64,000 bases of DNA from a virus (IMGVR_UViG_3300021387_001709:125812-189811); one strand, 5' to 3'. Shown: positions 12,002-45,509, numbered from the stretch's first letter. Numbers and translations: made by a program. The notes: generated by a model not told the origin, from the sequence alone.

Positions 12002-15000
12002 AAGGAGGACACTATGACAATTATATATAACGAGCAGACAGGTATCATGTACTACTACGATGAGGACGGCAACCTCGTCGATGTAGTAGACACTAACTAA
12101 AACACCGTCCACGGGTATCAGTGGGAGAAAGGAGCCAACCATGGCTAAAAATGCAACCGTAACTATCAACCTCACACCCGAGAAGATAACCAAAAATACG
12201 GTTAGATTCTCCGAACAGTTGGAGTCGGAATTCTCCGCTCCGGTCATTGGAACAATCTATGTCCCAAAGGTAACCCTGGGACAGTTAGGGTATAAGGAAG
12301 GAAACGTCCTTACCCTTACCCTTGGGATTGGAGGTGATGAGAAATGATTATCACACTATCCAAAGGGAAATCTAGCATTCGTGTTTCCATCAACACAGAT
12401 GCTAGTTACCGCATCTGGCTCAATAACCGATGGAGTGTAACATACCCAGACTTCGCGGAAAAGTATATCCAGCTCCGCGATGCCGGATTTGTGGAAACAC
12501 GTTCATAGTCAGACTATGGATACAAGGAAAATCATTATCTTGTATCCATAGATGTGGTTATGAACCGCAAATATATGGTTATGCCTTATCTTCAAAGGCA
12601 AACGGAGGGAACATTATGAAGAAATTTACAGATTACTGTCCGCTTAATGATGATATCGACTTTTGGATTGATGTTAAGATTATGCCTGATTACAAGAACT
12701 GGGAATCCTTGGAATACACCAAGGAACTCAAGTCCAAGATGTTCGAGGAAGTTTCCACAACGGAAACTGCTCCTCATGGAACTCGTAGACCCACAACTCG
12801 CGGAGATCGCCGGAAAGCTACCGCTAAGGCAAAGCAGCGCCGTGCGGAGATTGTAGTCATCCGCAAGGCAAAAGCACGCCGTACCTGGAGCGATGTTTGC
12901 CGTCACCCGTGGGAGTTCTACGGCAAGAATATTGACCGCTTGATGGGGGAGGTGGTAGTAAGATGAAGAAGGCAATTCTCGTCGGACTTCTGGCACTCAC
13001 CATCACCACACCCGTCAACGCTGCGGTCTATCCCCACATGGGGGAAGTAGTGGAAGTACTCCCCAAGGCAAATGGGGAATACGAAATTACCTTTGAGGAC
13101 GGAGCCGGTCGACCCTACTCATGGATTGACGATTCCGGGGATTGGTTGCCCGGAGATTTTGTTGCAACCATTATGGACGACAACGGAACTCCGCGCAACT
13201 GTTATGATGACCTTGTGGTCGATGCAAGGTACGTCGGATACTTAGAAATGTTTGAGTAAGGGAAAGGAGCTGATTGTATGAGTTTCACAAAAGAAGAGAA
13301 AATCTTCATGGAGATTATCAAAAGCAACCTTGCTAGTTTCAACGCTAACAAGCGCAAGGGAAAGTTAACCGTCGATTACGTAGTAGACGGCGGTAACCGG
13401 GCAGAAATCCGCAAGGACGGAGAGCTGCTGTTGGATGTAACGATTGACCAGGCATGGGCTGCTGTCGCAGCTATTATTAGATATAAGGAGGTTTAACATG
13501 AAAACATTATACTTCGAAGGCGCCGGATGTGAGAACACCAACGTAAACGATGTAGAAAATTGCCGTATCCGTACGGCATTCCGCACCGATGACGGAAGGG
13601 AATTCTATCTGGAGTTATTTTCCGGCTGCGAGAATTACCACTGGTATGACGCACCGCCGGGAGCTGTGAAGAAAGGAAACCACCATGATTATTACTATAC
13701 TTGCTCGGACATGATTATTGTAGATTTCTGCTTTGAGATTCACAATGGAAACGGAGATTGCAATACATACATTCACCCTATTGAACGTAAGAGAACCGGT
13801 TTGTCCTATACCAAGGCAAACATTCTCAAGCTAGTAAACGAGAACCTTGGGTGTAGCTTTACAGATATGATTGTGTTGCCTTGGTTAGCCGGTTACCGTG
13901 TACATTCCGGCAATCCCAAACGGAAATATAACTTGATGGACGACTATACTGACGTCCCGGAACGTACCGCAGAGCGAAACCGCATCTATCATGAGGTCGC
14001 TCGTGATTACTTTAACCGGATTTATCAGTCCCACATCAAGGCAAATCCAAGGGTTGCTCGTTTACTTAGTAAATACGAGACCTGGAGTCTTGTAAAGTAC
14101 ACCGATAAAACGATCACAATCCGTTCTCATACGTACAAGGAACTGATTGATGATGCGGAGCGTGTTCATACATTCCGCGTTAATTATTAAGAAGGGAGAT
14201 GAGCATATGCCTCCACAGATAGTAACAAAAAGGGACGCATACAACGCAGGTGGATACCGCGAACGCTATGCAATGGATAACGGAGACCGGGAAATCCGCG
14301 TGGTAAATGGTCACCGCTTGTGGATATATACCTACTCAAATGGAAATCCGTACCAGGATGCAAATGGTGCGACGTTCGATTGCAAGGAAAGGAAGTGGAT
14401 TGGATAATGGCACTATTCGGCTTGGGATTAATCATTGGATGGCTCGTCGGAGCGGTCATGATTGGTTTAGAATTGCAAAGAAGCGAAATCAGTTTACGGA
14501 AGGGAGGTCGCTATCATGGCTAACAAATTATTAAACTACTGCCTTCAGAAGCCGTACTTCCGGCTGATGCAGACATATAACGATATTTATTGGGCGGTAA
14601 AGAAAACCGCCATCAGCTTCCTCTACGACACATTCTGCGATGAGGAAGTTCTTAATCCGGAAGTTCTCCGGGAAGTAACCGAAAGCATCCTTGCTATCAA
14701 TGGAAAAGAGGTGGTAACCACATGACAAAAAGAGAGGCAGTTCGCAAATTCCAGGAAGACTTCGCATATCTTTATATGAGTGAAGTTGATTATTGGAAGG
14801 CAGAAGAATGGTGGTCATATTTTGTGGATGACCTCAACCGAAACGGTATCATTACCAATCGTCAAAGGGAAAATTGGGCAGCCCCATTTCCATATGGTAA
14901 ACATTTGAAACTTACTCGATGGATGGTTAAGCAAGGTTACCCGACACTTGCTAGATTAAAAGAACTGGAATATTGCGAAGAATATAACTAATTATTAAAG

Positions 15001-15023
15001 CGAAAGGATAAGGTAAAATAATC

Positions 15024-15896
15024 ATGATGGATTTAAGAAAAGTAGCATATGACTCTATTATTAACAACGCACATAAAACGAAAACAGGCAGAATGAACGC
15101 CGTCATTCCGGTATCTATGTTGGATGTAGATCCGCTATACCAGCGCGTTGAAGGTAGAAACGAAGCGAAACTCCGCAAGCTAAAAGATGAATGGGATTAT
15201 AACCTTATGGATGCAATTCTGGTTGTGCCTCATCCGGAAACCCATAACTTCTTTGTTGTCGATGGTCTTGGTAGATTAACCGTTGCAAAGGAAAAGGGAA
15301 TCGAGGAACTTGATTGTGTTATCCTTTTTGGTCCGGCTGATTATCTTGCTCGGCGTAAATTCGAAGCTCAGTACTTTTTGCGTCAGGCCATCTGCACCGA
15401 TCCGCTCCGTCCGGCAGCCATGCACAATGCGAGAGTACTCAACGGAGATCCGATTGCATTAGCTATCGAAGCTATCTGCGAGGAGTATGGAGTCGCCATC
15501 ATGAACACCAAAGGAAATCGAACCACTAAGAAGCTCGGTTCTTACGATAGGACATTCAACGTTATAAAGCGAAACGGCGAGGATGCTCTCCGCTTTGCTT
15601 TTGATGTTATCAAATATGCTGGGTTTGACGAGGAGAAGAATGGATACTCCGGTCGTCTGGTAACAATCCTCGGAAAGTTCCATGATGGATATAAGAACGT
15701 CAAAGCGAAAGACCTCGGCGAGTTCCTTCGTCCGATGAGTCCGATAGTCTTCCAAGCGAACGCGGTTGCGAAATATCCGCAGAGAGCGCATACTCCGGAG
15801 ATTCCCATGATTCTTTATCTTCAGGATTGGGCAATCGAACACGGAGAAAAGGAAGTGGTGTTTGGCTCTAACGGAAAGAAGATGAAGGTTGCCTAA
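15024..15896 (+). CDS. ParB/Srx-like domain protein
   Basis: VDPLYQR...FFVVDGLGR. Confidence 0.65.
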   Translation: MMDLRKVAYDSIINNAHKTKTGRMNAVIPVSMLDVDPLYQRVEGRNEAKLRKLKDEWDYNLMDAILVVPHPETHNFFVVDGLGRLTVAKEKGIEELDCVILFGPADYLARRKFEAQYFLRQAICTDPLRPAAMHNARVLNGDPIALAIEAICEEYGVAIMNTKGNRTTKKLGSYDRTFNVIKRNGEDALRFAFDVIKYAGFDEEKNGYSGRLVTILGKFHDGYKNVKAKDLGEFLRPMSPIVFQANAVAKYPQRAHTPEIPMILYLQDWAIEHGEKEVVFGSNGKKMKVA

Positions 15897-16406
15897 CCCT
15901 TGTGCTTAGATAAAGCCGGTGAGAATTATCCTCGCCGGCTTCAATGTAACCATAAGGGAGAATGATTAATCAAGGAGATGATACAATGAAGCTAAAAAAC
16001 TTGTTACCCGAGATTGAGCGTAGATATGCGCTCTATGTCAAGGATAAAGAATTCCGCTATTTCCTTGCGGAAGGCAAATCCAATCATTGGTACAGAAAGG
16101 ACTTTGCCACCTGGGCGGCGAACGTTCTTAAGAACGCATTGTTCAAGCCCGACGAAATTTGTGAGTGGTACAAACAATACGACTGTAATGACACTCACAT
16201 CACCACTGTGTTCAAACATTTTATTAAAGAAAGGGGAATCATCTAATGAAAGAAAAATCAATCAAGGTTAGTAAATGCAACGATCCTCGTAAGTGCTTCG
16301 CCAAGGTATTCGGCGGATGTATGGTACTGGACACCACATATCCCGAGGGAAAGCAGTGTCCATTCTGCAAACCCACAAGAAATATCACCAAAGGGAAAAA
16401 ATATGA

Positions 16407-16445
16407 TTGACAAACGTCAATCTCTGGATATAATTAATTATTAAA
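16407..16445 (+). promoter_or_regulatory. sigma-A promoter with overlapping operator motif
   Basis: TTGACA-16-TATAAT, then TTAATTATTAAA at 16434. Confidence 0.7.
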
Positions 16446-18938
16446 GGAGAAGCACTATGAAGGAAATCATTATTGAGATTCCGGAGATCGATTACGTATT
16501 AATCCACTGGCCGGAGAACACATGCACACCATGGGTCGCCGCCTGGGCATACCGTCCCAACCGCAATAGCTGGGGACAAGGTCACTACTTTATGAACAAG
16601 GCAGATGCACTCGAGTATCTTGTAGATATTTACAAAGAGCGTTATCCGGTATATATGGAACGCCGGATAAGAGAAATCCTGGCAGCGTAAGGAGGAATGT
16701 TATGAAATTGCGTAAACGCTATACAATCGAGTACATTGACAATAAACATGATATGGAACTCGCCGAAACAACACAGAACCCTTGGGAATACTTCAAGACA
16801 AAAGTATTTGAAGAGCCAAAAGCAAAAGAGGTATATACGGGCGAAAAGTCGCTTGATGCAGAAGCCTGGAAAACCTATCTCCTTTGGGCGATTTGCCCGG
16901 ATCAGATATATTTGAGTAACGCAAACAATGTGACTCATCCATTGTTTTGCCAAATGTGGATGGAACTGCTAGATGAGGACGACAAGGTTGTATATGAGGA
17001 TTACTGTGAACTCCCAGGGACAATCCGGAATACGCTTTTTACCGCTGTTAACAATCAAGCAAATAAGGAGCGTGACTCAGCAAGAGAAACAGTTAATGCT
17101 CTTGAAAAGGAACTCGCACTGTACAAATCATTTATTAAAAAGTGCAACGGCGAGAAGTTGTTTGATGAATTTAGAAGGGAGGCTGAATAATGAAAGTCTA
17201 TTATGAAGAGACATATGGCGGCTATTATGATGTAGACGCCGACAATCCCGAAGCCGCCGAAAAAGAATTGCTTTACTTAATCGGCGAAGGTAAAGAGAAT
17301 GGTCCGGATCAGTGTGAGAATAGCATAGTCGTTCCGCTCATTGGCAACGGAAAGCCGGACTTCCAGATAATGGGTGGTCGAATTGATGCCATGGGAGAGG
17401 ACGAAAAGAAGTTCTACTTGTGGCATCTACTCCGCTACTACTATAAACCGCGACTTATTGCGGGCAAAAAGAAGTATGTGGATAATCACGATACGGTTGA
17501 TATGATTGATTCGGTACTCAATGCGGTAGACGCGATCGATGCTGTTCTATGTTATGAGATTTATTAAAGGAGGTAGTCATGAAAAATAGAAAACTCTATG
17601 ATGCGATTACCGACTTCGCCACGGAGTACGGTTCGCTCAAATGGAACGATGATGAGAACGTCGCAGCGTTCCGAAATCTGGTTGACCTCAGTATTAAAGC
17701 CGGGAAAATTCCGGAGTGCAACAGAAATGAACCGTCCACTTGGAATAGACTTCAGGCGGCGGTTACTTACTATGATAACAGATTGAGATTTTGCAGTGAT
17801 TAAGGAGGTAGTCACAATGACAAGAGAAGACATCAGATCTAACGTTGAGGGGATGGTCGAAAAGGCTATCGAAAATATATTTCTCAACATGCAGTATAAC
17901 TTGAATGTTGCCGACGGGTTTATTGACCCGTGGGATTCATATAAGTTAGATGTAAAGGAATCGGAAATCACAGAGCTGATTACCGATATATTACTCAATC
18001 AGCCCAGAGAGGAGGAATGATTATGAATAATCCTTACTGGCGAGTAGTTCTTGACTACGGAAACCGCCGGGAATATGTCCCGGTTCACTCCTCGGAGTTC
18101 GCCGCAAACCTTATTGCTAACAACTACCGATTACTTGCCAAGGCAAATCATTTTAATGTAATCGCAATCACGGTCGAGCGTGTTATGGTTGTTAATAACA
18201 TCATCAGGAAGGTAGGGTGATAGCATGTTGAGGTATTTAGTAACCTACAAAATGGAGGGAGAACTTAGAGATCCGCAGATTTATACTAGCAATCGGATAT
18301 TTGATACCATGGATATGGATGATTGCTATGATATAGAAATTGACCGTATCTACTTAATCTCCGCGGCTAATGCACCAATTGAGTGTGAATTCAAGGGAAC
18401 TTGGTGTTGCAAAGATGAGGACGGCAGATGGGACTCACTCCGTATGGAGATTGTGGATAAAACAACCGGTGAAATATATTCAGTCGGTCGCGGAACCGAT
18501 CATTAAGGAGGTAGATACTATGACAATCGGCTACAAAGGGAGAATTACTATGGAAGTAACGCTCGTACATCGTTGTGCAACTCATAAAACATTCTACGTC
18601 AAGGCAGACACACTTAGTTCTGCATTGGTAGACATTGCAAACAAGCTGGATGAGGAAGATGACACAGGTTATTTCTTCGAAGCAGCAACAGCGGACATGG
18701 ATTACATCCGCACTCATAAGAACTTCCATATTATTCCATACTATGGAAGAGATATGGTGTGTGAAGTGGCTGACTATGGGGAAACAAACACTATGGAACG
18801 GCTCAATCAGTTTCTTAAAGACCATGACCCATACGAGTACATGGATAATGATATGAGCTTGGATAAGGTAAAAGAAATGGATTGCGACACAATTATAAAC
18901 TACTTACTTGATGTAATCGAAGAAATGGAGGATTAATT

Positions 18939-19547
18939 ATGATTAACAAAGTTATTAACGTAAACGAGAACCACCCGATGCACGACAAGCTCATGAATAT
19001 GATGAACAACACGACCGATGAGAATCTCATCATTGTAGCGCGCAGCTACAAGAACCGCAAAAATGATGCTATTGAGCCGATCGAAGTAAAGAACGGAATT
19101 TACTTCTATGTTGCATATAATCTCGATGGTGCGCTTGCATATCCGGCGGAAATCACTCCTCACCAGATTGCAATAGCGAAATCCAACACCGCATATAAAG
19201 CAAGACTTGGCACAATGCCGACCACACGGCTGACAGACGGTTTTGGTAGGTTTATGAAACATGTAGACGAGTTCACTGCCTGGGATGAGCCGATGATATT
19301 GCTTACCACCGACGAACTCGCGAATGGCGCAGGGATACTCCTGAATAAGTATGTGTTGTCTGCTATCAAAGAGAAACTCGGAGACTACTACATTCTTCCG
19401 AGTAGCATCCATGAGTTACTCATTGTTCCGGCTCACATAATGAGCATCCTTGATGCAACCGAAATGGTTGTGAACGCAAATGAAACGGTAGTAACCGATG
19501 ATGTATACCTCGCCGGCAGAGCATTCCATGTTGACGAGTGGTTATAA
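18939..19547 (+). CDS. DUF5688-like protein
   Basis: NGAGILL...LGDYYILPSSIHELLIVP...MV..AN. Confidence 0.65.
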   Translation: MINKVINVNENHPMHDKLMNMMNNTTDENLIIVARSYKNRKNDAIEPIEVKNGIYFYVAYNLDGALAYPAEITPHQIAIAKSNTAYKARLGTMPTTRLTDGFGRFMKHVDEFTAWDEPMILLTTDELANGAGILLNKYVLSAIKEKLGDYYILPSSIHELLIVPAHIMSILDATEMVVNANETVVTDDVYLAGRAFHVDEWL

Positions 19548-20037
19548 GGAGATAGAGATTATGTGGGAACATTACCGCTATATGGGTAACGATTATAAAA
19601 TCGTCTGGAAACAAAACGGAGAGGAGTTCGATCTCGACGCTCCGGAAAACGAGCGAATCTGGGAATCAATCGCATCCTACATGGATGACGATATAAGGGA
19701 AAGCGTACACGCTGAGCTTGCTCCGTGTACAAATACGGAGTTCCTTAACTCGTATCTGGAAAAAGACCCCGATTTTGAGGAGAATATTCTCCATGGAGAA
19801 TTCGGGATTACATGTGACTACGAATAAAAGTCGGATTTGAAGGGAGATGACCACAATGGAATTTATTTATTCCACCGACATTGAACTCGCGGATATTCAG
19901 CAGACGGTTAGTTTATTAACAGAGAAACTTAATCACTACAAGGCAAATTATCCATACGCAATTTATGAAATTGATCGTATGGAAGTTGCACTTGATGTGT
20001 TGAATGACCTTGAAAACGATGTAGCGGAGGCTGAATA

Positions 20038-20277
20038 ATGAAAAGCTGGTTTGTGTATGTTATTAACAACGAGAAAATTGGCACCTGGGCAAACAATTCT
20101 GATGAAGCAGAGCGGAATCTGCGAAAGGAATATGGTGATGTTCCAATGGAGTATGTCGGTGTTAATTACGCCGGTATTGGTCCGCGACCGGACAAGGTTA
20201 TTCGGTGTGGTATGAGTCCTATAGATACCATGCTCGCTTATGGGCTTGGTAATATGTTGGCTAGTCTTAGATATTGA
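20038..20277 (+). CDS. hypothetical protein (paralog of 24540..24785)
   Basis: MKSWFVY.IN..KIGTWANN..EAERNLR.EYGDVPME shared. Confidence 0.8.
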   Translation: MKSWFVYVINNEKIGTWANNSDEAERNLRKEYGDVPMEYVGVNYAGIGPRPDKVIRCGMSPIDTMLAYGLGNMLASLRY

Positions 20278-21386
20278 AGGGAGGTTGCAATGGAAAAATA
20301 CTACATGATTCATAGTTCACTATTCGAGCATATTGGTAACAATACATTCAAATGTATTGCATCCACCAGAAAGAACATGCTCGGCACAATGATAATAAAA
20401 CCCGATTTGCATCAGCCCTGGGTTCATTCGGTCACATCCAAAGATGAAGCAATCCACTGGATGAAAGAGGATGCGTATTGGGATAACGTTGAAGTATATA
20501 CACTTGAAGGGAGATGATACAATGATAAATATCAAAGCTAATAAATGGTCGTTAATTAACTACTTCGACGTCTGGGGAAACGCAGACGACGGTTACTTTG
20601 TAAACAACCAGTGCGTTGAGGTAGACGACCTCAATATCACTGAGGACGCAAACGAAAAGGATATTCTCCAATATCTTGAGTCGATTGGATTCCTCGGTAC
20701 TTCCGACCGCCGGAGAGTTCGGCTTGAGGATTCTGGTAACATGATTGAGATCTACGCGGTCAAGGGGCATTATCCCCTTGGTTGCTTGATGATGAACTAT
20801 TAAAAAGGAGATAACGCTATGAGGAGAGCAACAAATATCATGTGGGATTATGATGAGGATGAGTTTGGTGGAACGGCATTATTTTTAGGCTTGCCCGATC
20901 ACGTTGACATTCCAAGCGAAATTGACGACGAAGATATTGCTGACTATTTATCGGATACTTATGACTTTTGCGTATTTGTATTTGATATTGAGGAGGTGGC
21001 ATCATGAGAATTATGAACTGCTCTATTCCGAATTGTGTACCGGAATATAATCGTTCTCGCTTCGAAGATGAAGCCCACGAAGCGGAAAAGGAATGGGAAC
21101 GGCTGACATGGTACGAGAAAAACAAAGCGTACCGCCGGCAGAAGTACATCGACGGTTGCAATGAACTTCAGTTCTATCCAACGGAATGTGAGAAATGTCC
21201 ATACGGAGAGGAAGCGATGCCGGACTCCGAGATGGACGATATTCCCACCATGATTTGTAGCAACTGGAAAAACTGCCAGGTGTACCGAAATGATGCAGAC
21301 GAACATTTTCCGACAGTACCATGGGAAGAATATTGTAGCTGGAGAGAAGAGTATGTAGAAAAGCTTAAGAAGGGAGAAGCGGAATA

Positions 21387-21689
21387 GTGAAAGAAAGAGA
21401 ATATGTCATATACATGGCACCAATGAGTGTGAGTTACACATTCAGAGATTTTGATTTCGCCATGGCTCATGATTGGAAGATGGCTGATTACGTTCCGGTT
21501 TGGCGCGGAACAATATCAAGCGAAACGGTAAACGGAGCGCTTGAAAGACTGTTTGTTATATTCAATACAGACGAACGTCCGTCACAGTATTGTGGAAGAT
21601 CACTTAGCATGTCAGATGTGGTAGTGCTTGATGGAATTCCGTACTACTGTGACAACATTGGATGGAGCGAATGTCCGAGAGATTATTAA
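21387..21689 (+). CDS. YodL-like domain protein
   Basis: LERLFVIFNTDERP..Y.GRSLSMSDVVVL...YYCDNIG. Confidence 0.75.
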   Translation: MKEREYVIYMAPMSVSYTFRDFDFAMAHDWKMADYVPVWRGTISSETVNGALERLFVIFNTDERPSQYCGRSLSMSDVVVLDGIPYYCDNIGWSECPRDY

Positions 21690-23874
21690 ACGAAAGGAGA
21701 CTACCACATGAGAGTAACAACTTACCGAAATAACAGAAATCCACACAAATTCCTCGATGTCAAGCATACCGCCGACCGTCACTACATGTGGCGGCAGCGA
21801 ATGGTGTTTGATAACGGAGTAACCAATCATGTCGGTACTCCCAAAGGTGGATTTCGCCGGCAGAGTAAGGCAACTATTGATGAAGTGTTGATGGATTATG
21901 AGGAGGTAATAGCATGAATATGAGTTATTGCAGATACGAGAATACACTCCATGATCTTAGAGATTGCATCAATGATGCACTTGCCCATGTAAATGAAGAA
22001 GCGAAATACCCAGTGAGCAAGTCGGAAATTGGTTGCTTCCGTCGGATGGTAAAAGAATTTTACCAGATGATGGATTTCTGTGACATGATTAACGATGACG
22101 GCACACTCAATGAAGAGGAACTCGATAATTGCTGCTCTATGATGGAACACGGATATGATGTGGATGACGATGATGAAGGGTGGTGGTAATTATGGAAACG
22201 ATTGAAAAGGAAGTATATGTCTTATATGGCTATATTTTCGACCCGAGTCATTACACTGTATTCGGTGTATATGAGAACTTGCAAGACGCAAAAGAGAAAT
22301 ATGCGGAGTTAAAAAAGTATGAAAAATATGGCGCAAATATAAAAGACAAAGTTATTAAAGCAGTGATGAATGCAGAGGAGAAATGATTATGGATTTTGAA
22401 AAGGAAATCGAAGATAGCATCAAGGAAGCTATTAAAAACAATAGCTACATCGAAGCCGAAGACGGCGATGGAGTTCTTTTCCCAACGGTTGAGAACGTCC
22501 GGACATTTAAAGAAGCGAGTATTCTGACGACTGACAAGGGAGTTGTAATTGATTTGAATGACGGCTCCACCGTGTATCTTACAATCCAGGCATATAAATA
22601 AGGAGGATTAGCTATGAAAATGACGCCGGAGTTTAGAGAGTTCCTTGAGGAATTTGAATTGACACATTATTTTGACCTTGGTTACGAACGGGACTTGCTC
22701 GTAGCATATGAATTATCCAAGAGAGTTCCATCAATCAAAACATTCGAGGACTTCGATGCTTACGCAGAGGTTCTCGAATCAAAGAAACTTGACCATGACA
22801 TAGACTACTATATGTACAACAAGGCACTTGAAAAAGTGTTAGGTCATCCGGTGTTTAATGACGAGGATGAAGATGAAGACTTTTGGGATAAGATTATTGA
22901 CGAAGAAGGGAGATAATACTATGTTGACGATTGACAATTTACTCGACTACACAAACCTTGAAGGCCCAGTAAGAGTAACTCGCTGGACGGATGATGGTTG
23001 CGAAGTTCTCTTTGAGGATGACGCATGGGAACTCAGCCGTGTCGATGCTGATTGGATGAACACGGAAATTCGAGTTATATTCCCTGGTACCGACGGAAAA
23101 CTTGTTATTGAGGTAGCATAAGAAGGGGGGTGATTACATGACATTTAGAGATAGCGAAATAAACCAGATAGAAATCGACATGAATACTTTATGGATTTAT
23201 GATGAAGAACAGCAAAGGGTAGTGGTTGATTTTTATCCAGGATATTCAATACGGAGACGAGTACTGGATTTTCTCGGCTTGGATTTGGATAACATCTTCA
23301 CCGACATGTGGCTTGATGCCACGGCGATGATCGATCCGGTTCGCCGGATTGTAACGGGATTGTACTTCGAGGTTCCGCTTGACGAGTATAACGGGATGCC
23401 GCCAACGGAGTTGTCACTGTCGATTACTAACTATCCCGAGGGTAAGTTGTTCTTCGACCGCCTTATGGAAACAAGCAACGGCGGTCTTGAAGAATTTATT
23501 AAAGAGTATGATGACGCTGCTCCAAAACTTAAGCATCATACGCTTGACCCAATACTCTATAAAACAAATATCCTCGGCGAATTTGGAACCGGGAAAGCTT
23601 ACGAAAGGAAATGATTATATGATTACAGCAAAAGGAATTAAAAAAGCGGTTCGCGCTAATGAAAGATACATCGACATTCCGAGCCGCTCCCATATGGATA
23701 ACATGGTTTATTTTGTCGCTGACTTATTAAAGGAATCCGGTGACGTGGAAACAGCGGCTAAGGTGAGGGAATTCTATGGAAAACTGGAAGACATGGATAC
23801 AGCCAAACTTGTGAAAGAAAGAATCTGGATTGGGTAACAATGAAAACCGAGTTTAATCAAAAGGAGAAATCATT

Positions 23875-24159
23875 ATGAGAAAATACGTAGTAGTTAAGAC
23901 ACACAACTTCGACACAGAAACAGAAGCGACAGAGTTTAATGACTATAGAAAAGCAACCGCTTATCTTCACTGGATGTGGGAAACATATCTCAATGAAGAG
24001 ATTGCAAATGATAGCGATCTTGACGAAGAATGGTGTTATCACGAAGAAACCTATGGAAGGATTCGGTGGAAAGACGGAGATTATACAGAATTCAATCTGA
24101 TTGAAGTTTATGAACCTAGGGAAGACTTCCCGGTTAACTGGGAAAAATATGCAATGTAA
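23875..24159 (+). CDS. hypothetical protein (tandem paralog of 24218..24511)
   Basis: HNFD..T...F..Y.KA.AYLHW.WE.Y.NEEI shared. Confidence 0.8.
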   Translation: MRKYVVVKTHNFDTETEATEFNDYRKATAYLHWMWETYLNEEIANDSDLDEEWCYHEETYGRIRWKDGDYTEFNLIEVYEPREDFPVNWEKYAM

Positions 24160-24187
24160 TAAAACAACGATTTCATAGGGAAGCATA

Positions 24188-24203
24188 CCACAATATATAG
24201 TAT
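24188..24203. promoter_or_regulatory. NrdR-box-like site
   Basis: CCACAATATATAGTAT resembles consensus acaCwAtATaTwGtg. Confidence 0.5.
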
Positions 24204-24217
24204 ATAAATGAAAGGAG

Positions 24218-24511
24218 ATGCACGATATGATGTATGCAGTAGTAATTAATCACAACTTTGATGCCGATACAAGAGTAACCGTGTTTGATAATTATGATAA
24301 GGCAAAGGCTTATCTTCACTGGATTTGGGAAAAATATTATAACGAGGAGATAGAGGCCGAGAGTCATCTGAATGAAGCAGATTGTTGGCATCAGGATGAA
24401 CTCGCAAAAGTAACATGGGATGATGGGTGTTACACATATTTTGAACTTGTCAGTCCTTATGAAAAACCCGAGGAAGAATTCAATCAGATTGATTGGAAAC
24501 GCTACCTGTAA
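24218..24511 (+). CDS. hypothetical protein (tandem paralog of 23875..24159)
   Basis: Shares the motifs listed for 23875..24159. Confidence 0.8.
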   Translation: MHDMMYAVVINHNFDADTRVTVFDNYDKAKAYLHWIWEKYYNEEIEAESHLNEADCWHQDELAKVTWDDGCYTYFELVSPYEKPEEEFNQIDWKRYL

Positions 24512-24539
24512 TAAAACGATTATTGAAGGGAGAACGCCT

Positions 24540-24785
24540 ATGAAATCTTGGTTTGTGTATCTTATCAACGGAAAAAAGATTGGCACCTGGGCGAACAACA
24601 CAGAAGAAGCAGAGAGAAATCTGAGAACTGAATATGGTGATGTACCAATGGAATTCATTGGTATTAACTACGGAAAACTTGGCGCACAGCCAGAGAAAGT
24701 AATCCATCGTGGAATGAGTGCGGTGGACACAATGATTGCAACTGGAATGATGAACATGCTTGTTGGTCTTAGATATGGGAGGTGA
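24540..24785 (+). CDS. hypothetical protein (paralog of 20038..20277)
   Basis: GAAGGGAG RBS before ATG 24540. Confidence 0.8.
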   Translation: MKSWFVYLINGKKIGTWANNTEEAERNLRTEYGDVPMEFIGINYGKLGAQPEKVIHRGMSAVDTMIATGMMNMLVGLRYGR

Positions 24786-27700
24786 TCACATGGATAAAAA
24801 TAAACTGCGTGTAAAAGTAGAGGCAATAGCGGAAGCATTTGAAAATTATTGTGAAACACTTGATGCAACAGAATATGAGTTATTCTATGACGCACTTAAT
24901 GATGTACTTGCACTTTGTGATGGAAATGATGTTTCGGCAATTTGTAACGACAACAAATAAAACGGTTATTTGAAAGGAGACACAAGATATGGAAAACAAT
25001 ATTAAACTTTACAACGTAATCGGAACTGATGACCTTGAAGGCACGACATTTTGCAGATGTACGTCTTATGAGAAAGCACTCAATGCTTTAGAACTTTTAG
25101 AAGACCAGGGATTTGATGGGTTACTTGATATAGTTCAGGATGAAATGCCTGTTGATGTTATAGAAATTGACGGAGTTCTTGTGGAATTAGAAGACTAATA
25201 AAAGATAGGTTTGATGAAGGGAGATGATTCTATGGCAATAACTCGTACATGGAAAGTATACGGTGCGGACGGTCATCGGCAGCGTGAAAGTTTTGGTCCA
25301 TCGGTCAAGTGGGATTGGTCAAATAAGGAAGACGGTGTTCGGATTTTCGAGGCTAATAACTTCGATAAGACCGGCACACATGATTACTCGATTATCCGTA
25401 TTACTCGTAACACTTGGGAAGAATGTGACGAGGAAATGGAAGGGCAGATAAGTGATGGATACTTTGAAAATTCAAGAGTTGGCAAGGTAGTTGAGGTTAT
25501 TTAAAGAGAGGAGAATAGCAAAATGTCAATAGGCTCATTAGTAAAGGTAATTGTTGACATGCCGGACGGTTGCTATAACACCCATGTTTATGGTGAAATC
25601 GGCGTTATAAGCGAAATATACCGCTATGATAACGGCACGTATGATTATACCGTCCATAATAAATATGGCGATTTTGTGTACGGTCGCGATCAGATAAGGG
25701 AACTTACAGACAAGGAGTGTAGAGATGCACTGCATGATATGTTGATTAATTAAGGAGATAGCATTATGTTGAATCCGAAACAGAATCTTATCCGATTAAT
25801 AAAAGAAATCAGTTCGAAGAGCGACGCAGAAACGATTGTATCAGATACAATGTACGGTATATTTTCAACACCAGGTCAGTTATATTCGTTAGCAGATAAT
25901 ACTAATAAAGAGTTGTGTATTGAGTTCCTTTCGACTGACTACAAAAGAAAAGAAGATATCTATGGTAGCAATCCGAACGTAAACGAGTATGCTCTCGTTG
26001 TGTTCTGGAATGATGATATTGTATATGATGAATACTTCCAGCACGATGTTACGGATAAGATGATAGAAGAAGTGAAAGAGATTTGGTATCAATAAAAAAC
26101 AGCTTTTATAGAAGGGAGAATGCAAATGAAATATGTTGTAACCGCATACGTTGATGAGAACAAGAAGTACGAGGTAAATGTAACTGTAAAGCGTAATGCC
26201 AAAAAGAGAACGGTATTTATTAAATGCATGAATGCGGTTGGTCAGATGTTAGTAAATGATAAAATCCTCACCACAGGCAAATACGGATTTGAAACTCCGT
26301 GTTTAAATAATGGCTGTCTTGGTGCTGCATGGTTTAACGATCCATTCATTAATATAACTATTCAAGAAGAAACCGGTGCCTGGATAGCACTCTAATGAAA
26401 CCGGTTTTATGAAGGGAGAAGTGGTCACATGAAGAATGAATTGGTAATCTGGATTGACGGGACTATGTCATATATTTATTTCAAGACAAATCAGACAACA
26501 GCCGAACATGCTCTTGCAGAATTCGACGTATTGATGGATCGACTTGGAGTAGATACATGCAATTTAGGTATCTCTGAAATTGAATTAAGAGATGCAAACA
26601 CAAACGAAACTATTGACAAAGTTGTGTACTAATAAAACTAGCCTTTGAGAGGAGATGATAATATGACAGTAAAGGAACTCACAAATATTCTCAATACTTG
26701 CGATCCGGATATTCAGGTTGTGATTTTCCAGAAAGGAAATAATGATCCATATTCCGTAAGATACGGAATTAAATCTGTAGAACAGGTTGAGAATTATTCA
26801 TTGCATGACGAAGATGAATGGCCGTATACAGTAGAAATCAGAATAGGTAGATAAAATGAATGGAGATGATTACATGAAAACATATATCATTGATTACGTT
26901 GTTGGTAACACATATAAAGTAAAGAAAATAAAAGCGGAAACGGTTGAACAGGCAATCAGGAAAGCAAGAGTTAAATCGATTGTTGATATTAACATTGAAG
27001 AATACATCGTGAAAGATAAGTATCAGCTGAGAGACTTTTAATAAACGTTTAATGAAGGGAATTTATAACATGCCAAAAGAAATAGAACTGAGAACAAACT
27101 TAGACTGGGCCGGAGAATTCCAGACGATGGCAGAAAGAATGAGACTTTGTGGATCCGAAGAGCAGATGTATAGACAGCTTCAGAAGTTTAAAGAAGAATT
27201 CAATAGCGAGTACGGAAGACTTAGCAGAACGCAGCGAAGTAAAACCGGGTTTAGATGGAAATAAAACACACGTTTGATGAAAGGAGAGAATTATATGTCA
27301 ACAAGATCTTATGTAGGAATTATTAAAGATGGTATGGTTAAATATGGATATCATCATTGTGATTCACATTTAGAATCACTTGGTATTGAGTTATTCAACA
27401 TCAAGACGGAATCTGAATTGCTCACTAAAATTGATGCTCTTGCGGAATTTGATATGGGTGGTTGTGTATCTGTAAATGATTATTTCAGAATACCAAAAGA
27501 AGATGTATTCATGGAATTCTGTTATGGATTCAATGTTGATGATAATGAATGGTATGTAAGTTCATGTCATTTTATAAATCAGGACAAAATGTACAAGCTG
27601 ACTGAGTTGATTAAAAATGATGAAGAAATGGAACATTATCTTGATATGTATTATGAAAGATATAGAAAAGAAATATTAAATATAATTAGAAATGGGATTA

Positions 27701-29333
27701 AATGAAAATCAAGTTTGATAGGAGGAAAACATTATGAAGAACTATAGAGTCGTAGTAAATTTTAGTTTTTTCGGAGCAGACGATGAGTTCTATGTGGAAG
27801 CTGACAACGAAAACAAGGCAAAGGAAATCGCCTTAGATCTTGCAAGTGAGAACCTCGACGTCGTTTCTGTTGATGTAGATGATGACGATGATTCATTCGT
27901 TAAGGACTACAGAGTCACGGTTAACTTTGGCTTTGTAGGTTGTGACGAAGAGTATATTGTTGATGCAACCAATAAGGAAGTGGCTATGGATGATGCCCTC
28001 CAGTGGGCGAAGGACGAACTTAGGATTGTGTCCATTGAAAAAGCTGATGACTATGATAATGAAGAAGGGAGATGATATTATGAAGTACGAAGTAGTAATA
28101 ACCTATGAAGAAAAACACCGTTATTTCGTTGAAGCAGAAAACGAGGAAGAAGCGAAAAAGATTGCATGTGCCAGAGATGAAAAGGACGATGATAATGATG
28201 GTATGTGCTGGGGCACTGATTATGATGTATGCGTTGTCGATTAAGGAGGGACACAAATGGAATTCAGAACCGCAATTGTAGACGAAACGGGCTGCGTAAT
28301 GTTTTGGGTTGACACACTCCAGGGTGACGATCAGGTAGAGGCAATTCTTACAGCCCATCTGGAGTGGTCATGTGTAGCGATTGAGCAGTGATTATTAAAG
28401 AAGGGAGATAATCTGATGAGAGGAAAAATTGTAGAACTGGTTGACAGCTTCAATAAAGATAAAACATATTGCAAATACATTAGCAATAGGGGTATCAATT
28501 ATCAGTTGCTCGAAGGTATGACAATTGGTAAAGGTCGTTTTACCTCGAATATGGTGTTTATCATTTTAGAAATAGACTGTAATTTAGATTCCCACACGGA
28601 AAGCGAATTATTTAAACTTTGTGATTCGTGGTCTCAATTGGTCGATTTCCATTATATGGCCGGTGACGAAGAGACATATGGACTTGAAGAGGAGTATATA
28701 AAAGACGTTATTGATAAATATGAGGAAGACCATAAGGAACTGATTGACTTCATAATTGCTAACAACATAGAAACTTATTAAAGAATGGAGCGTGATACAA
28801 TGAGCAAGACAATAGAAAGCTGCGCAACTACAGACGGAAAGATGATGTGTGAATTGGTAACCGGCAAACACTACGGAGCAACGGTATATGTGGTTCATGT
28901 GTATGAAACATCGGATTACGTAAATTATAAGGAAACTCACCGCTCTTATCCTACTGGCAACAAGGTAAAAGCGAAGACGCTGTATAAGAAGTATACAAAC
29001 ATTTACTTAAGGAATAGGAAATAATTACTGAGGAGGAAGATAAATGAAATTATTAAAAACACTGAGAGTTAATCAGAAAGCGAGAGTCAAACTTGATTAC
29101 TTCATGGGGACAGACACTTACAAAGATATCTATCTGCCGATGGTCGTCAAGGCAGAATATCCTACATGGTATCTGTGTGAGGTGCTTCCCCATATGAATC
29201 CTCGCGGATGGAAAACATCTGCGCCGTATCCCGTAACAATCAGCAAATGGAATCTTGCTCACGGTTTTGTTAGCGTAATTCCATACAATGAAAATAACCC
29301 CGTACTTTATATGGTATAAATGTGTCAATAACC

Positions 29334-29364
29334 AAAGGAACTGGCTTCGGCTAGTTCCTTTTTT
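29334..29364 (+). terminator. intrinsic terminator ending the small-gene array
   Basis: AAGGAACTGGC-TTCG-GCTAGTTCCTT followed by a T-run. Confidence 0.85.
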
Positions 29365-31818: not shown

Positions 31819-32769
31819 ATGACTGGAAGACAGGAAGATGAAATAAAACTAAAAAATAAAATACAAAAAATGTTAATTGACAAACCTATTATATTAAAAA
31901 AATATTATGCGTATATGGGGGAGAATAAAACAGAAAAAACAAAAAATTTGTATATATTAGGTCTTATAAGATATAATAATTTTTTAATTATAAATAATCA
32001 TACCGTAGAAGATTTTGATTATTTGCAAAATCAGAAAAAAACAAATATTAACGAATACATAGAAGAGTTAAAATATAGAAATGTTAATGGAAAAATAATA
32101 AATAACAGCAGAAGTAATATTAGGACTAATTTATATGCGGTAAAATCTTTTTTTGAGTTTTTGGAGGATGAGGAATATATTACGAAGAATCCATTTTATA
32201 ATTTTAAGTTCCCAAAATTAAATGAAATTATTGAAGTTCGTCCGATAGAAAAGTCTGATATTAAAGAAATCAAAGCAAATATTCGAGCTTTTAGTAAAAA
32301 TCCAGAAAGAGACGAGGCCATATTTGTTATAGGTATTAAAACTGGTTTGCGAGCATCTGCAATAACAGAAATAAATATCTCGGATATTAATTGGGAAGAT
32401 CATACGATAAAGGTAACAGAAAAAGGTAACGTAACTAGATTAGTTTATTTTGGTGAAAATACTGAAACTGCTTTGATTAAATGGCTTGATGTTAGAAAAG
32501 AAACTCCAAATTGCGACGCGTTGTTTATTAATAATAGGGGGCAAAGAATTAATTATAGTATTATCAATAGAATGTTAAAAAAATATGGACTGGGCAATGT
32601 TCCGCATAATTTGAGAAAAACATATGGGACAAATCTTTATGATGAGTCTGGGGATATTTATTTAACTGCAGAAGGGCTAGGGCATAAAAATATTCAAAAC
32701 ACGAAAAGATACGCGCGAGTATCAGAAAAGAAGAAATTACAAGCAGCAAGATTAGTAGATAAAATATAA
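31819..32769 (+). CDS. tyrosine recombinase (YopP-like position); catalytic residues intact
   Basis: TGLRAS (R), EKGN (K), PHNLR (HxxR), LGH, TKRY (Y). Confidence 0.9.
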   Translation: MTGRQEDEIKLKNKIQKMLIDKPIILKKYYAYMGENKTEKTKNLYILGLIRYNNFLIINNHTVEDFDYLQNQKKTNINEYIEELKYRNVNGKIINNSRSNIRTNLYAVKSFFEFLEDEEYITKNPFYNFKFPKLNEIIEVRPIEKSDIKEIKANIRAFSKNPERDEAIFVIGIKTGLRASAITEINISDINWEDHTIKVTEKGNVTRLVYFGENTETALIKWLDVRKETPNCDALFINNRGQRINYSIINRMLKKYGLGNVPHNLRKTYGTNLYDESGDIYLTAEGLGHKNIQNTKRYARVSEKKKLQAARLVDKI

Positions 32770-32786
32770 TAATAGTTAAAATGCGC

Positions 32787-32819
32787 TTGCAACCAATGCA
32801 ATTATGTTGTATTATTAAA
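32787..32819 (+). promoter_or_regulatory. sigma-A promoter for the DndB-like/MrpR-like pair
   Basis: TTGCAA-17-TATTAT, overlapping TATTATTAAA. Confidence 0.6.
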
Positions 32820-32838
32820 TACAGAAAGGAGGCTCACC

Positions 32839-34077
32839 ATGATAAACGGCGAAGCAAGCAGAGCGGAACTAAACAGTTATCTTAATGATAAGCTGATGGA
32901 AATGACTAACCGGCGCGAAAGGATGGAACTGTACAAACAGATTTATTCCAGGTTCAACATTTCTATTGAAGTAACTACCGATTACTTCACATTCAAGAAG
33001 GACATAGCGGAAGCATCCAACTTTGAGGTGTTCGCATTCTTGTATTTTATTAAAAGAAACCGTCTTCATTTATACTTCACAGACAATGAAATCGAAGTGT
33101 TTAGCAACGAAAAGGTAGAAGATAAAACTATCACATTTCCGTTGGTATTCAAGGACATTGTCCAGGTAAGTGAAGATCAGTGGATCGGGCGTACATCATT
33201 TCAAGAGCTGATGGCAATGAAGGACGCTCGCTTGATTAACTACGACGAAAACGAGCAGCGAACATTCCGTCACATCAAATCCGGCAACACGGAAATCATG
33301 CGAGTGTTCATCAACAAGAAGTCCGTCCAGGAGATTAAGGAAGCACTGAAAACAGGCCGCTACATCCCGGATGACATTACACTCAATATCCCACAGGGAT
33401 CGGAATTTAGTTTTAGTAACAACACGCTCAAAATATATAGTTTGCTGAATGGTAAGTTCAATATTATTGACGGCTATCATCGCTGGCTTGGAATGGCGGA
33501 GATATATAACTTCAATAAAGAGTTTGATTATCCGATGGAAATCAGATTTGTTAACTACTCAACGGAGAAAGCAAATCAGTTTATCTATCAGAAGGATCAA
33601 AAAACTCAGATGAAAAAATCTGACTCAGCGTCTTATAATCAGTATAACATTGCAAATCGTGTGGTCAAGCGACTCAACGAAGACCCAATGAGCAATCTCC
33701 AGGGTATGATTGCTCGTAATGACGGGCTAATTAAAGAAGCTGACCTCGCAGCCGTAATTGATTCTTTCTATGTTAAGGGAAAAGAAATCGGCAACGAAAC
33801 TTTAGCGGTTGTAACTATTAAAAATGACATTCAAAAGAAATTTAATTCAGTATCTGAGGTAAATCCCGATTATTTAAATAAGAAGTATACCGTGAAGGAT
33901 TTAATAATCCTAATGTTTGTATTTACATCCGACGTAGAAGTTAATAAGTATGATGAACTGATTGATTATCTAGTTTCAAAGAAAATTAATTCTTCATATT
34001 ATACATTTAATCGCGGCTATGTAAGAAAAAAGGTTATCAATGAGTTAAATAATGCGTTAGCAGAATGGAGGCGCTAA
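32839..34077 (+). CDS. DGQHR/DndB-like (ParB superfamily) protein, SPbeta YopQ-like
   Basis: INYDENEQR...YIPDDITLN...IIDGYHR; lies between the recombinase and the MrpR-like gene, as in SPbeta. Confidence 0.7.
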   Translation: MINGEASRAELNSYLNDKLMEMTNRRERMELYKQIYSRFNISIEVTTDYFTFKKDIAEASNFEVFAFLYFIKRNRLHLYFTDNEIEVFSNEKVEDKTITFPLVFKDIVQVSEDQWIGRTSFQELMAMKDARLINYDENEQRTFRHIKSGNTEIMRVFINKKSVQEIKEALKTGRYIPDDITLNIPQGSEFSFSNNTLKIYSLLNGKFNIIDGYHRWLGMAEIYNFNKEFDYPMEIRFVNYSTEKANQFIYQKDQKTQMKKSDSASYNQYNIANRVVKRLNEDPMSNLQGMIARNDGLIKEADLAAVIDSFYVKGKEIGNETLAVVTIKNDIQKKFNSVSEVNPDYLNKKYTVKDLIILMFVFTSDVEVNKYDELIDYLVSKKINSSYYTFNRGYVRKKVINELNNALAEWRR

Positions 34078-34079
34078 TC

Positions 34080-34976
34080 ATGTATAACGCAGAACGTAAA
34101 CATCAGTTCCTTAATGAACGCAGAAGCGAAGTGGAGTTATCTCCAAACACAGAAATCTGGTTTGAATCAATGGAATATTTTGAGAAGGAATATGATCGCG
34201 ACATTTGCGAATGGACGTCAACCGAAATCATTCGATACATGAAATATATGAGTACTCCGCGGGTGCAGACATTGATTATCTTTAAGGGATCAATGAGTAT
34301 TTACGTTGACTGGTGCATAACCAACCGGTTGGTTGATGATAATCAGAACCATTTTACGGAACTCACTACAGAAACCCTTTGTGAGTGTATTGATTTCACA
34401 AAGTTACGTTCGCTGATTCTTACTCGGGAGGAGTTGCTGGAGAATATCCGCACACTAAACAACTATTCCGATCAATTCATATTCCTCGGGTTGTTCGAGG
34501 GTATCAATGCGCAGAACTTAATTAATGTTGGTGTATCCGATATTGATGGAAATGAATTGCATCTTCATGATGGAAAAACAATTACAATCAGTAACGGCCT
34601 TCGCCACACTATTCTGATGGCAGCGGAAGAAACGACCTGGATTAGCACCAAGAGCCGTCAAAAAGAATATGACTATATCCCGTCCGATAAGATAATTCGC
34701 ATAATTGACCGTAAAAATCCGCAAACAAATATGATGCTGTTACTCGGCGGAAGGTTTAGAGGTGCGCTTGCGTTTATGGGCTTACCGAGCGAAATCTCGC
34801 GAAAGGATATAATGGAATCCGGGCGCCTGGATTATATCCAGAATATTATGAAGGAAAAGAATATGTCACTACATGATGTGATTTTTAATAGTGACATTCG
34901 AAACGATGTAGAATCAAGATATGGTAAAATACAGAATTGCGGCGTATATGTTAACATATACGGAAAATTAATTTAA
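34080..34976 (+). CDS. MrpR/YopR-like lysogeny repressor (catalytically dead tyrosine-recombinase fold)
   Basis: MYNAERK..FL, FEKEYDRDICEW, IFLGLFEGI, ESGR; lacks the R-HxxR-H-Y set; synteny matches yopP-yopQ-yopR. Confidence 0.65.
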   Translation: MYNAERKHQFLNERRSEVELSPNTEIWFESMEYFEKEYDRDICEWTSTEIIRYMKYMSTPRVQTLIIFKGSMSIYVDWCITNRLVDDNQNHFTELTTETLCECIDFTKLRSLILTREELLENIRTLNNYSDQFIFLGLFEGINAQNLINVGVSDIDGNELHLHDGKTITISNGLRHTILMAAEETTWISTKSRQKEYDYIPSDKIIRIIDRKNPQTNMMLLLGGRFRGALAFMGLPSEISRKDIMESGRLDYIQNIMKEKNMSLHDVIFNSDIRNDVESRYGKIQNCGVYVNIYGKLI

Positions 34977-37329: not shown

Positions 37330-37331
37330 CG

Positions 37332-37840: not shown

Positions 37841-37846
37841 CTGTTT

Positions 37847-44067: not shown

Positions 44068-45006
44068 ATGGCATTTGTAAAAGCTGTACGTGAAAAAGTT
44101 AAGGCTAAGGTGCTTCTTTCCGGTCCGAGTGGAGCCGGAAAAAGTCTGAGTGCTTGTGAACTAGCAACGGGAATTTATAGAAAGTGTGGTGGCCCAGGTA
44201 TTGCATACATTGGGACAGAAGGTGACCGAGATAAATTATATGCTCAGACAAAATCAAAACATGGAGATTATACATTTGAATATGATTTGCTTCAGTTGAG
44301 TGATCCTTTTACAACTGATAAATATATAGCAGCTATTGACGAGGCGGTTGACGAGGGTTATCAGGTGTGTATTATTGACGGTCTTAGTGCAGAATGGAAA
44401 TGGCTAAATGATACCCATGATAAGATGCCCGGAAATTCATTTACTAATTGGGGGAAATTAAAACCCAAGCACCGCGCACTTCTTGATAAAATTCTCAGCG
44501 CTCCGATGCATATTATTTGTTGTGCAAGAGGTAAGGACGAGTGGCTCCTGGAAGAAAGAAACGGTAAATCCGTTCCGAGAAAGGTAGGAATGGGAAGTCA
44601 GACGGATAAGGACATTTCTTATGAGGTCATGCTGTCACTACAGATTGAACAGGATACTCATTTAGCCCATTCCGACAAGGACAATACGAATTTATGGCCA
44701 GAAACCAGATATTCCGTGATTACCGCAAAAGATGGTGAAGCGCTTTATGACTGGTGCGAAGTCGGTACTATTCCGGCTCCGAAACCCGTCATCCAGAAAT
44801 CCGCTGATATAGCGATGGATTCTGCCGACGACCTCAAAGCCGTCAAAACCGAAATCATCAACGCAGCTAAAGCAGCCGGCGGTTCCGGTAACGAAGCCGT
44901 CATGACCACAATTAAGGAATATGCTCCGAGTGGTAACCCTAATGCCATCAGAGATATTAATAAAGCTCGAGAGCTTCTGACTAAGCTCCAGGCTCTTGCG
45001 CAGTAA
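44068..45006 (+). CDS. AAA ATPase (Sak4/AAA_24-like)
   Basis: GPSGAGKS, IIDGLS, HIICCAR; directly upstream of ssb. Confidence 0.8.
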   Translation: MAFVKAVREKVKAKVLLSGPSGAGKSLSACELATGIYRKCGGPGIAYIGTEGDRDKLYAQTKSKHGDYTFEYDLLQLSDPFTTDKYIAAIDEAVDEGYQVCIIDGLSAEWKWLNDTHDKMPGNSFTNWGKLKPKHRALLDKILSAPMHIICCARGKDEWLLEERNGKSVPRKVGMGSQTDKDISYEVMLSLQIEQDTHLAHSDKDNTNLWPETRYSVITAKDGEALYDWCEVGTIPAPKPVIQKSADIAMDSADDLKAVKTEIINAAKAAGGSGNEAVMTTIKEYAPSGNPNAIRDINKARELLTKLQALAQ

Positions 45007-45086
45007 CTCATTAACCATTACCATCACTCACATACGGGCGGAGCAAATCCGCCCAACTAATTAATTATTAAAGGAGAATAGATATT

Positions 45087-45509
45087 ATGAATAAAGTTGA
45101 ATTACTTGGACGTATGGTGAGAGACCCTGAGATTCGTTATGCATCTGGAGAGAACGCAAATGCAAATTGTCGCTTTACAGTAGCGGTAAACAGAAAGTTT
45201 AAAAACAAAGAAACCGGACAGTATGATGCCGACTTCATTAGTTGTGTGGCATTTAATCAGCAGGCTGAGTTTGTGAACAAATGGTTTCACAAGGGTGATC
45301 CGATTGTTGTTGATGGATGGATTAGAACAGGCAGTTACACCAACAAAGAAGGAGTTAAAGTATATACAACAGAGGTAAGTGTTGATGGTGTTGAGTTTGT
45401 CCCCGGAGTTAAAAACGGAGATAATACAACAGCTACTGCTCCTTCTCAGGCGGCAACCGATGGTTTTATGAACATTCCGGATACTGTCGAAGAAGAACTT
45501 CCGTTTTGA
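45087..45509 (+). CDS. ssb: single-stranded DNA-binding protein
   Basis: MNKVELLGRMVRDPE...ADFISCVAF...EELPF acidic tail. Confidence 0.95.
   Translation: MNKVELLGRMVRDPEIRYASGENANANCRFTVAVNRKFKNKETGQYDADFISCVAFNQQAEFVNKWFHKGDPIVVDGWIRTGSYTNKEGVKVYTTEVSVDGVEFVPGVKNGDNTTATAPSQAATDGFMNIPDTVEEELPF

Follow-up and report, generated by a model that had tools for sequence, protein, structure and literature searches.

Position-specific linkers between exchangeable mini-genes in the early operon of a virus

The 64,000-nt stretch IMGVR_UViG_3300021387_001709:125812-189811 (hereafter the window) makes up the final 64 kb of a single 189,811-bp virus record and carries, on its plus strand, a row of ~55 small genes that forms one long early operon. 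Within that row lie short sites of the form TRAAA-N6-TTTDA, which an earlier note on this DNA had taken to bound the units of an integron-like array, built by site-specific recombination, for the capture or shuffling of genes. That this is a gene-shuffling array is well supported by the comparisons described below, in which breakpoints of gene gain, loss and replacement between relatives coincide with the sites; an integron or tyrosine-recombinase mechanism is not supported. As read from the related genomes, each type of site (here called a linker, and named for its 6-nt core) is a positional anchor, and what is replaced, lost, added or moved is the unit between two linkers, consisting of Shine-Dalgarno (SD) sequence, open reading frame (ORF) and stop codon.

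The linkers are 17-28 nt long and share one layout: a stop codon with an A-run, which together make up the left arm, the 6-nt core, TTTNAT, and an extended SD (GAAGGGAGATGA) that complements the 3' tail of 16S rRNA in Firmicutes and is present at junctions without the site too. With one representative for each of 24 distinct types, the consensus is AA-TAAAA, the core and TTTGAT, followed by the extended SD. All nine sites listed in the earlier note are where it had placed them, with the qualification that the one at 24160, TAAAA-caacga-TTTCA on the plus strand, fits TRAAA-N6-TTTDA on the minus strand only. Among the near or degenerate matches that it had added, those at 24512, 26396 and 27042 hold, the last as a truncated gacacg linker, while 26852 turns out to be an ordinary tight junction with no site.

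The motif is present 17 times in the window compared with 4.43 +/- 2.21 times in dinucleotide shuffles, none of 100 of which reached 17. The plus strand of the whole 189,811-bp genome has 25 matches, and the 8 of these that fall within 19825-27718 are all at junctions where a stop codon is followed by a ribosome-binding site. When such junctions of 10-80 nt were considered genome-wide and each was shuffled with its own stop codon retained, 11 of the 95 natural junctions had the motif, against 0.21 +/- 0.45 in the shuffled ones (maximum 3 in 2000); the enrichment at junctions that the earlier note had proposed as a check is there. Chance or AT-richness as the source of the motif is ruled out by three different shuffles. 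The spacing is likewise constrained: in 290 junctions of 11 related loci a 6-nt spacer occurs 43 times, in 43 of 53 junction matches, and each other spacing from 2 to 12 no more than three times.

A megablast search of GenBank phages, by which near-identical phages were sought, gave no match, and the relatives used here are ten contigs of 67-205 kb obtained from IMG/VR by searching with two proteins and also with an extended form of the motif, TAAAA-N6-TTTGATGAAGGGAGA, which is found in only 8 IMG/VR contigs, all of the same lineage; the corresponding arrays were taken from the ten genomes for comparison. The earlier statement that each site has a different core is right within this genome and wrong between genomes, where each core is conserved. 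Eleven types recur from genome to genome (cggtta, gatagg, gacacg, aacagc, ccagcc, ctcgcc, gtcgcc, atcaag, caacga, accgag and gtcgga). The 51 sites have only 24 distinct cores, and sites that share a core can be matched between genomes in 69 pairs; for random 6-mers our own estimate from the counts is ~0.3 such pairs.

The genes that flank a given core are a different matter. Neither flanking gene family is shared in 61 of the 69 same-core pairs, only the left one in 4, only the right one in 4 and both in none, and sequence identity is at background by position -3 on the left and beyond +25 on the right. The order of the eleven linker types is nonetheless collinear in nine genomes, with 252 concordant pairs and 0 discordant, G004 being the sole rearranged genome in this comparison. 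The slot between cggtta and gatagg, for instance, has seven different contents in seven genomes, ranging from one to four genes. Across linker junctions, none of 141 comparisons showed the same two gene families still adjacent (none of the 18 with both genes present), compared with 150 of 1022 at linker-free junctions (150 of the 249 with both genes present).

Traffic between these genomes has left its mark in the identity of individual genes. Backbone genes of the window, including the integrase, a 412-aa gene and an MrpR-like gene, are 57-70% identical in nucleotide sequence to those of the relatives L004 and L005, versus 90-96% for cassette genes of families F10, F18 and F19. The blocks of high identity extend from linker to linker, as at 27261-27719 against L004, and those against L006 have ends at 19824, 23861, 25198, 27051 and 27720-27724.

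Several joints allow the ends of the movable unit to be placed more closely. Gene F11 is found after ctcgcc, aacagc and aaatgc linkers and in all three settings retains a leader of its own, GGAGATAAAGCCA. The gatagg linker of L004 is joined directly to the SD of F10 itself, and the window's copy of F10 is tightly joined to a different gene upstream. The slot between the accgag and caacga linkers, occupied in the window by a 94-aa gene, is empty in L006 and G005, where the two linkers abut and the joint is ambiguous over an A-run of 3-4 nt. Further, a right-arm variant, TTTTAT(A)G, is found with 5 of 7 aacagc cores and 1 of 49 others (Fisher p = 3e-5), and stays with aacagc although the downstream genes all differ. 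Since the variant tracks the core and not the downstream gene, the points of exchange are outside the arms and not within the spacer. The earlier note had suggested looking for breakpoints inside the 6-bp core; they are indeed at the sites, but at their outer edges, 5' of TAAAA and in or after the SD. SD, ORF and stop codon thus make up the movable unit, and A-run, core and T-run are retained.

A second array of mini-genes, at 12000-28000 of genome C1 (outside the window) and in L020-L024, has the same linker style with another SD context (TTTTATTGGAGAAT, TTTCATTGAGGAGG) and conserved cores of its own (cgattc, ttgagg, agatta and gggtta). There neither flank is homologous in 19 of 22 same-core pairs. 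Some motif matches in this second array are simply SD, spacer and ATG (TGAAAGG-N-TTTGATG), with no linker.

As to the operon in which the first array resides, a single promoter and a single terminator bracket the whole of it (Table 1), and the cassettes are promoter-less and all in the same orientation. Promoter-like matches within the operon are not enriched (61 against 53 +/- 8.5 expected), which bears out the earlier impression of no obvious internal promoter, and internal terminators are not enriched either. From 12.9 to 23.6 kb the genes are tightly joined, with anything from a 4-nt overlap to an 18-nt gap and the SD immediately after the stop; from 23.8 to 27.7 kb the majority of junctions are 28-33 nt long and have an additional segment of ~16 nt, which is the reported site. 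The 20 cassette proteins gave only marginal matches to PHROGs, and those to families of unknown function. The duplicated paralogs that the earlier note had reported are real: one pair (23875-24159 and 24227-24511) is in tandem with the long-form caacga linker between its members, and the other (20038-20277 and 24540-24785) has differing junction contexts, overlapping stop and start in one case and a linker in the other.

Table 1. Positions of the linkers and of other features in the window
Feature	Position	Strand	Remarks
Sigma-A-type promoter, operon start	16407..16434	+	TTGACA-16-TATAAT, 12/12 match (perfect); TTAATTATTAAA motif directly after
Linker gtcgga, TAAAA-gtcgga-TTTGA + AGGGAGA	19825..19840	+	also in L006 and G005 with other flanking genes
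About 20 cassette mini-genes, 44-136 aa, all ORFans	23619..28391	+	no informative PHROG match
Linker accgag, TGAAA-accgag-TTTAA	23841..23856	+	abuts linker caacga in L006 and G005, slot empty
Long-form linker caacga	24160..24226	+	palindrome-bearing insert 24188-24203 before SD
Near-match linker cgatta, TAAAA-cgatta-TTGAA (right arm TTGAA)	24512..24527	+	direct sequence reading
Linker cggtta	24958..24973	+	at junctions in 9 genomes, downstream gene different each time
Linker gatagg	25199..25214	+	in 7 genomes; window-L006 homology block begins at 25198
Linker aacagc, own right-arm variant TTTTATAGAAGGGAGA	26093..26108	+	25-28-nt tract identical in L002 and L017; flanks unrelated
Degenerate linker TGAAA-ccgg-TTTTA, 4-nt spacer	26396..26409	+	direct sequence reading
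Linker ctagcc, variant of ccagcc/ctcgcc types	26633..26648	+	
Truncated linker gacacg, TAAA-cg-TTTAATGAAGGGA	27042..27060	+	4-5-nt core deletion relative to L003 and L004
Linker cacacg, one base from gacacg	27262..27277	+	95.6%-identical window-L004 block begins at 27261
Linker atcaag	27703..27718	+	homology blocks with L004, L005 and L006 stop at 27719-27724
Strong intrinsic terminator, operon end	29334..29361	+	12-bp stem, then T-run
Xer-like tyrosine recombinase, 316 aa	31819..32769	+	probably outside the linker system (model scores)
AAA_24, weakly Sak4-like protein (44068-45006) and SSB (45087-45509)	44068..45509	+	candidate phage recombination pair

The truncated gacacg site follows a gene of family F18, after which L003 and L004 have the full gacacg linker. 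The long-form caacga linker is also found in L004 and L016, with both flanking genes different. Palindromes like the one in its insert, ACACAATATATAGTGT, were found as 11 matches at up to 3 mismatches where 0.8 would be expected: at 11871-11888, 24188-24203, 62820-62837 and 62853-62868 of the window and in the long-form linkers of L004, L016 and L018. The stem varies compensatorily in relatives, in caacga and cggtta linkers of the long form (CACAAC..GTTGTG, ATAC..GTAT, ACAC..GTGT), and the palindrome, lying between linker and SD, may have been inserted there as an operator or a small hairpin. A scan of 12-40 kb for known RNA families found tRNAs only, a cluster of four tRNA genes lying at 37240-39437 of the window (Rfam RF00005). 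The 12-mer TTAATTATTAAA, seen right after the -10 box of the operon promoter, has 13 exact copies in the window against 0.08 expected, 12 of them on the plus strand (5186, 7185, 16434, 30233, 35445, 35936, 38819, 42861, 42922, 45061, 59141, 62918 and 63205); it is mostly at or just after sigma-A-type promoters and could be a promoter-proximal operator or leader element.

How, then, might the slots be reassorted? On balance we lean towards short-homology recombination at the linkers, these being a promoter-less and hairpin-less variant of the promoter early stem-loop (PeSL) cassettes of T4-type phages, which mediate the same kind of shuffling (PMC2839356, PMC4122927). Several samples contain two or three diverged relatives, which makes co-infection plausible, and in a cell infected by two of them an annealing-type crossover between identical 24-28-nt linkers would reassort the contents of slots without leaving a scar. 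The exchange may be catalysed by the phage's AAA_24 (Sak4-like) and SSB pair: the AAA_24 gene adjoins those for SSB and a DnaB-like helicase, an arrangement typical of Sak4-SSB annealing modules (PMC5928155, PMC2896510). Sak4-type proteins carry out single-strand annealing (PMC5928155), and the single-strand annealing proteins of phages recombine sequences that are short and diverged (PMC5499656, PMC8093625). That the cores differ within one genome would hold exchange in register and prevent deletions between linkers. Rarer events at universal microhomologies, with stop codon and A-run on the left and SD on the right, would take a cassette to another slot or leave a slot empty, and joints of this sort are directly visible in the genome comparisons. 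The linkers probably serve expression as well. Each supplies stops in frame 0 and frame +1, a leader that is rich in A and U and unstructured, and a strong SD, by virtue of which any incoming ORF would be translated independently.

Several considerations weigh against this account. The relatives stem from few metagenome samples, so the counts are phylogenetically non-independent. Identical linkers hide the crossover point, and homologous exchange is to that extent deduced rather than directly observed. Linkers of 24-28 nt are as short as efficient homologous recombination allows. The match of the AAA_24 protein to the Sak4 PHROG is weak (E = 3.8e-4), and the RecT, ERF and RecA families were not found in the genome. 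Gene indels occur at tight, site-free junctions too, which implies that linkers are not required for gene flux. Lastly, homology alone leaves the fixed 6-nt spacing and the partial palindrome unexplained; they could reflect a common ancestral linker, frame constraints or a protein that recognizes the arms, and for their sake a site-specific or nuclease-assisted mechanism is kept in mind, improbable as it is.

The most serious competitor, though we consider it unlikely, is that the linkers are expression signals only, whether they insulate translation, serve as a module for its re-initiation or act as operator for a regulator that binds RNA or DNA, and that synteny breaks at them because random illegitimate recombination is viable only at uncoupled junctions. 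Much in their anatomy is congenial to this. The site overlaps the stop codon and abuts the extended SD, a +1-frame stop precedes the next start in all 53 linkers examined (with a +2-frame stop too in half of them), and genes upstream in the same operon are joined by tight or overlapping junctions instead. The RNAs of eight junctions fold no better than shuffles (-0.5 to -3.3 kcal/mol, z -1.6 to +1.1) and the first and last core bases have no complementarity; being no stabler than shuffles, these RNAs form no hairpin. Some joints, too, are plainly microhomology events at the SD, and there is a precedent in the start-associated sequences (SAS) and extended SAS (ESAS) of cluster K mycobacteriophages, conserved start-associated repeats of unknown function (PMC3203893). 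However, random breaks in a 30-nt spacer should often destroy or hybridize the core, which is intact in the 61 of 69 pairs with both flanks replaced; the edge at position -2/-1 is sharp and degenerate cores are few (26396 and 27042). Nor does a generic translation signal need a position-specific core, or 17-28 nt identical across backbones of ~60-70% identity.

A more elaborate proposal, which we regard as quite doubtful, is that the cores are selected 'addresses' in a scaffold that keeps cassette exchange in register, with arms perhaps recognized by a dedicated protein. Unique linkers would then bound each slot, so that co-infecting phages could swap contents with gene order kept, and the A4-N6-T3 arms might be recognized by the Xer-like and MrpR-like pair or by a nickase. 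Such an arrangement would be akin to recombinase-mediated cassette exchange with heterospecific sites.

Harder still to sustain is an outright dependence on a dedicated enzyme, the linkers being either lox-like heterospecific sites recombined by the Xer- or MrpR-like recombinases, only between sites with identical spacers, or hot spots nicked by an endonuclease; we think this improbable. The fixed 6-bp spacing, within the 6-8-bp overlap of lox, dif and FRT sites and typical of tyrosine-recombinase overlap regions, is certainly suggestive, as are the partly palindromic arms (the caacga site of L006 is a perfect TCAAA-N6-TTTGA), cores that are the same between genomes and different within one, and the conservation of two tyrosine recombinases in all relatives for which the region was fetched. 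The core sites of tyrosine recombinases have inverted binding arms of ~9-13 bp, however, and here the arms are only 5-7 bp, with a symmetric part limited to T-AAA / TTT-A, and overlap both stop codon and SD. Strand exchange within the spacer is at odds with the right-arm variant described above, which follows the core and not the downstream gene; visible joints are in the SD or the A-run; and the same linker style recurs in the second array, far from the recombinase genes.

The recombinases themselves are not encouraging candidates. The earlier note had singled out the protein encoded at 31819 as a possible builder of the array. Its best matches are XerC (130 bits) and XerA, both below the model cutoffs, and on the IntI model TIGR02249 it scores 28.6 bits, over its C-terminal 46 aa only, against a cutoff of 265. 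Its gene is ~2.5 kb beyond the operon terminator, and both it and the gene for the 298-aa MrpR-like integrase/tyrosine recombinase at 34080 sit in a transcription unit separate from the array, so the role proposed for it finds no backing. The usual role of Xer- and MrpR-type recombinases is dimer resolution or integration. The two genes and that for the 412-aa protein (phrog_5732, with a weak DGQHR-domain match) form a three-gene block at 31819-34976 of the window, present in every relative for which the region was fetched, and each downstream spacer of the block has a promoter-like site, TTGCAA-17-TATTAT.

To a true integron-like system, with an attC-like site for each cassette and capture by an integrase, we give almost no credence: promoter-less small genes in one orientation, served by one upstream promoter and separated by a recurring imperfect palindrome, do recall it, but the comparisons made here refute it, there being no IntI, sites of 16 nt that neither fold nor have GTTRRRY boxes (attC is a 57-141-bp imperfect palindrome with R and L boxes that folds single-stranded), and a site shared with the upstream gene in only 4 of 69 pairs, with order fixed while genes change. 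The suggestion of Tn916-like heterologous coupling sequences likewise gives way before cores that are conserved, position-specific and collinear in nine genomes. A link to TnpB was considered because the right arm TTGAT resembles the transposon-associated motif of TnpB, and was rejected: neither the arrays nor any of the loci fetched contain a significant match to the two spacers of the mini-array beside a TnpB-like gene. That mini-array, at 4728-4900 of genome C1 (outside the window), consists of three ~31-nt repeats resembling GTTTATTCCGTATGTGTGTGGGATGTCCTA, with spacers of 23 and 60 nt.

Short-homology exchange at linkers has its closest known counterpart in the PeSL system, which occupies the same genomic place and has the same evolutionary role. 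Both elements are conserved intergenic sequences that begin, in AT-rich surroundings, with the stop codon of one gene and end with the SD of the next (PMC2839356, PMC4122927); both are found between ORFans of hyperplastic regions; indels and replacements between related phages end at both; and homologous recombination has been proposed for both. The differences are no less instructive. PeSL elements have ~100 bp of conservation with a sigma-70 promoter and a terminator stem-loop, whereas the present linkers, at 17-28 nt, have neither, their 28-33-nt junctions being too short for a -35/-10 pair of an early sigma-70-type promoter and the fold energies given above leaving no stable stem-loop. And the PeSL copies are a family of similar, mutually recombining repeats, in contrast to the one core per position, in a collinear set, that is seen here.

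Other comparisons are looser. The boundary linkers of modular theory are similarly short conserved sequences at mosaic joints, proposed as sites of homologous exchange, but are not identifiable at most mosaic boundaries (PMC3029335); here linkers are at nearly every array joint and are position-specific. SAS/ESAS elements are likewise repeats that accompany translation starts, in the half of the genome without the structural genes; the ESAS contributes imperfect inverted arms about a spacer of variable length, immediately before the repeat that contains the SD, and is of unknown function (PMC3203893). ESAS arms are of 17 bp with a spacer of 4-13 bp, unlike the 5-7-bp arms and fixed 6 of the linkers, and from genome to genome an ESAS keeps the same gene family downstream, which the linkers do in only 4 of 69 pairs. 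Finally, attC and sites of lox or dif type share with the present case promoter-less cassettes in one orientation and imperfect inverted arms about a 6-bp spacer, and differ from it in that here there is no IntI and no folded attC, the sites stay when genes move and the arms are too short.

It is an old question whether phage mosaicism arises by homologous exchange at conserved linkers or by random illegitimate recombination followed by selection, and the former view has been without clear examples, since mosaic joints usually turn out to have no such sequence (PMC3029335). The present lineage is an unusually clean case, with about a dozen distinct linkers of 17-28 nt whose order is fixed in nine genomes. 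On the evidence of the sequence comparisons turnover has reached every flanking gene, and it is demonstrable that cassettes have passed between diverged backbones in recent times. What is new is linkers that are short, promoter-less, hairpin-less and position-specific; linker elements are thereby shown to need neither promoter nor hairpin, and exact sequences are now available for testing how long and how similar two sequences must be for recombination in phages. For the phages concerned, the ~20 ORFan early genes per genome form an accessory pool with rapid exchange and are on that account plausible, if putative, genes of host takeover or counter-defence.

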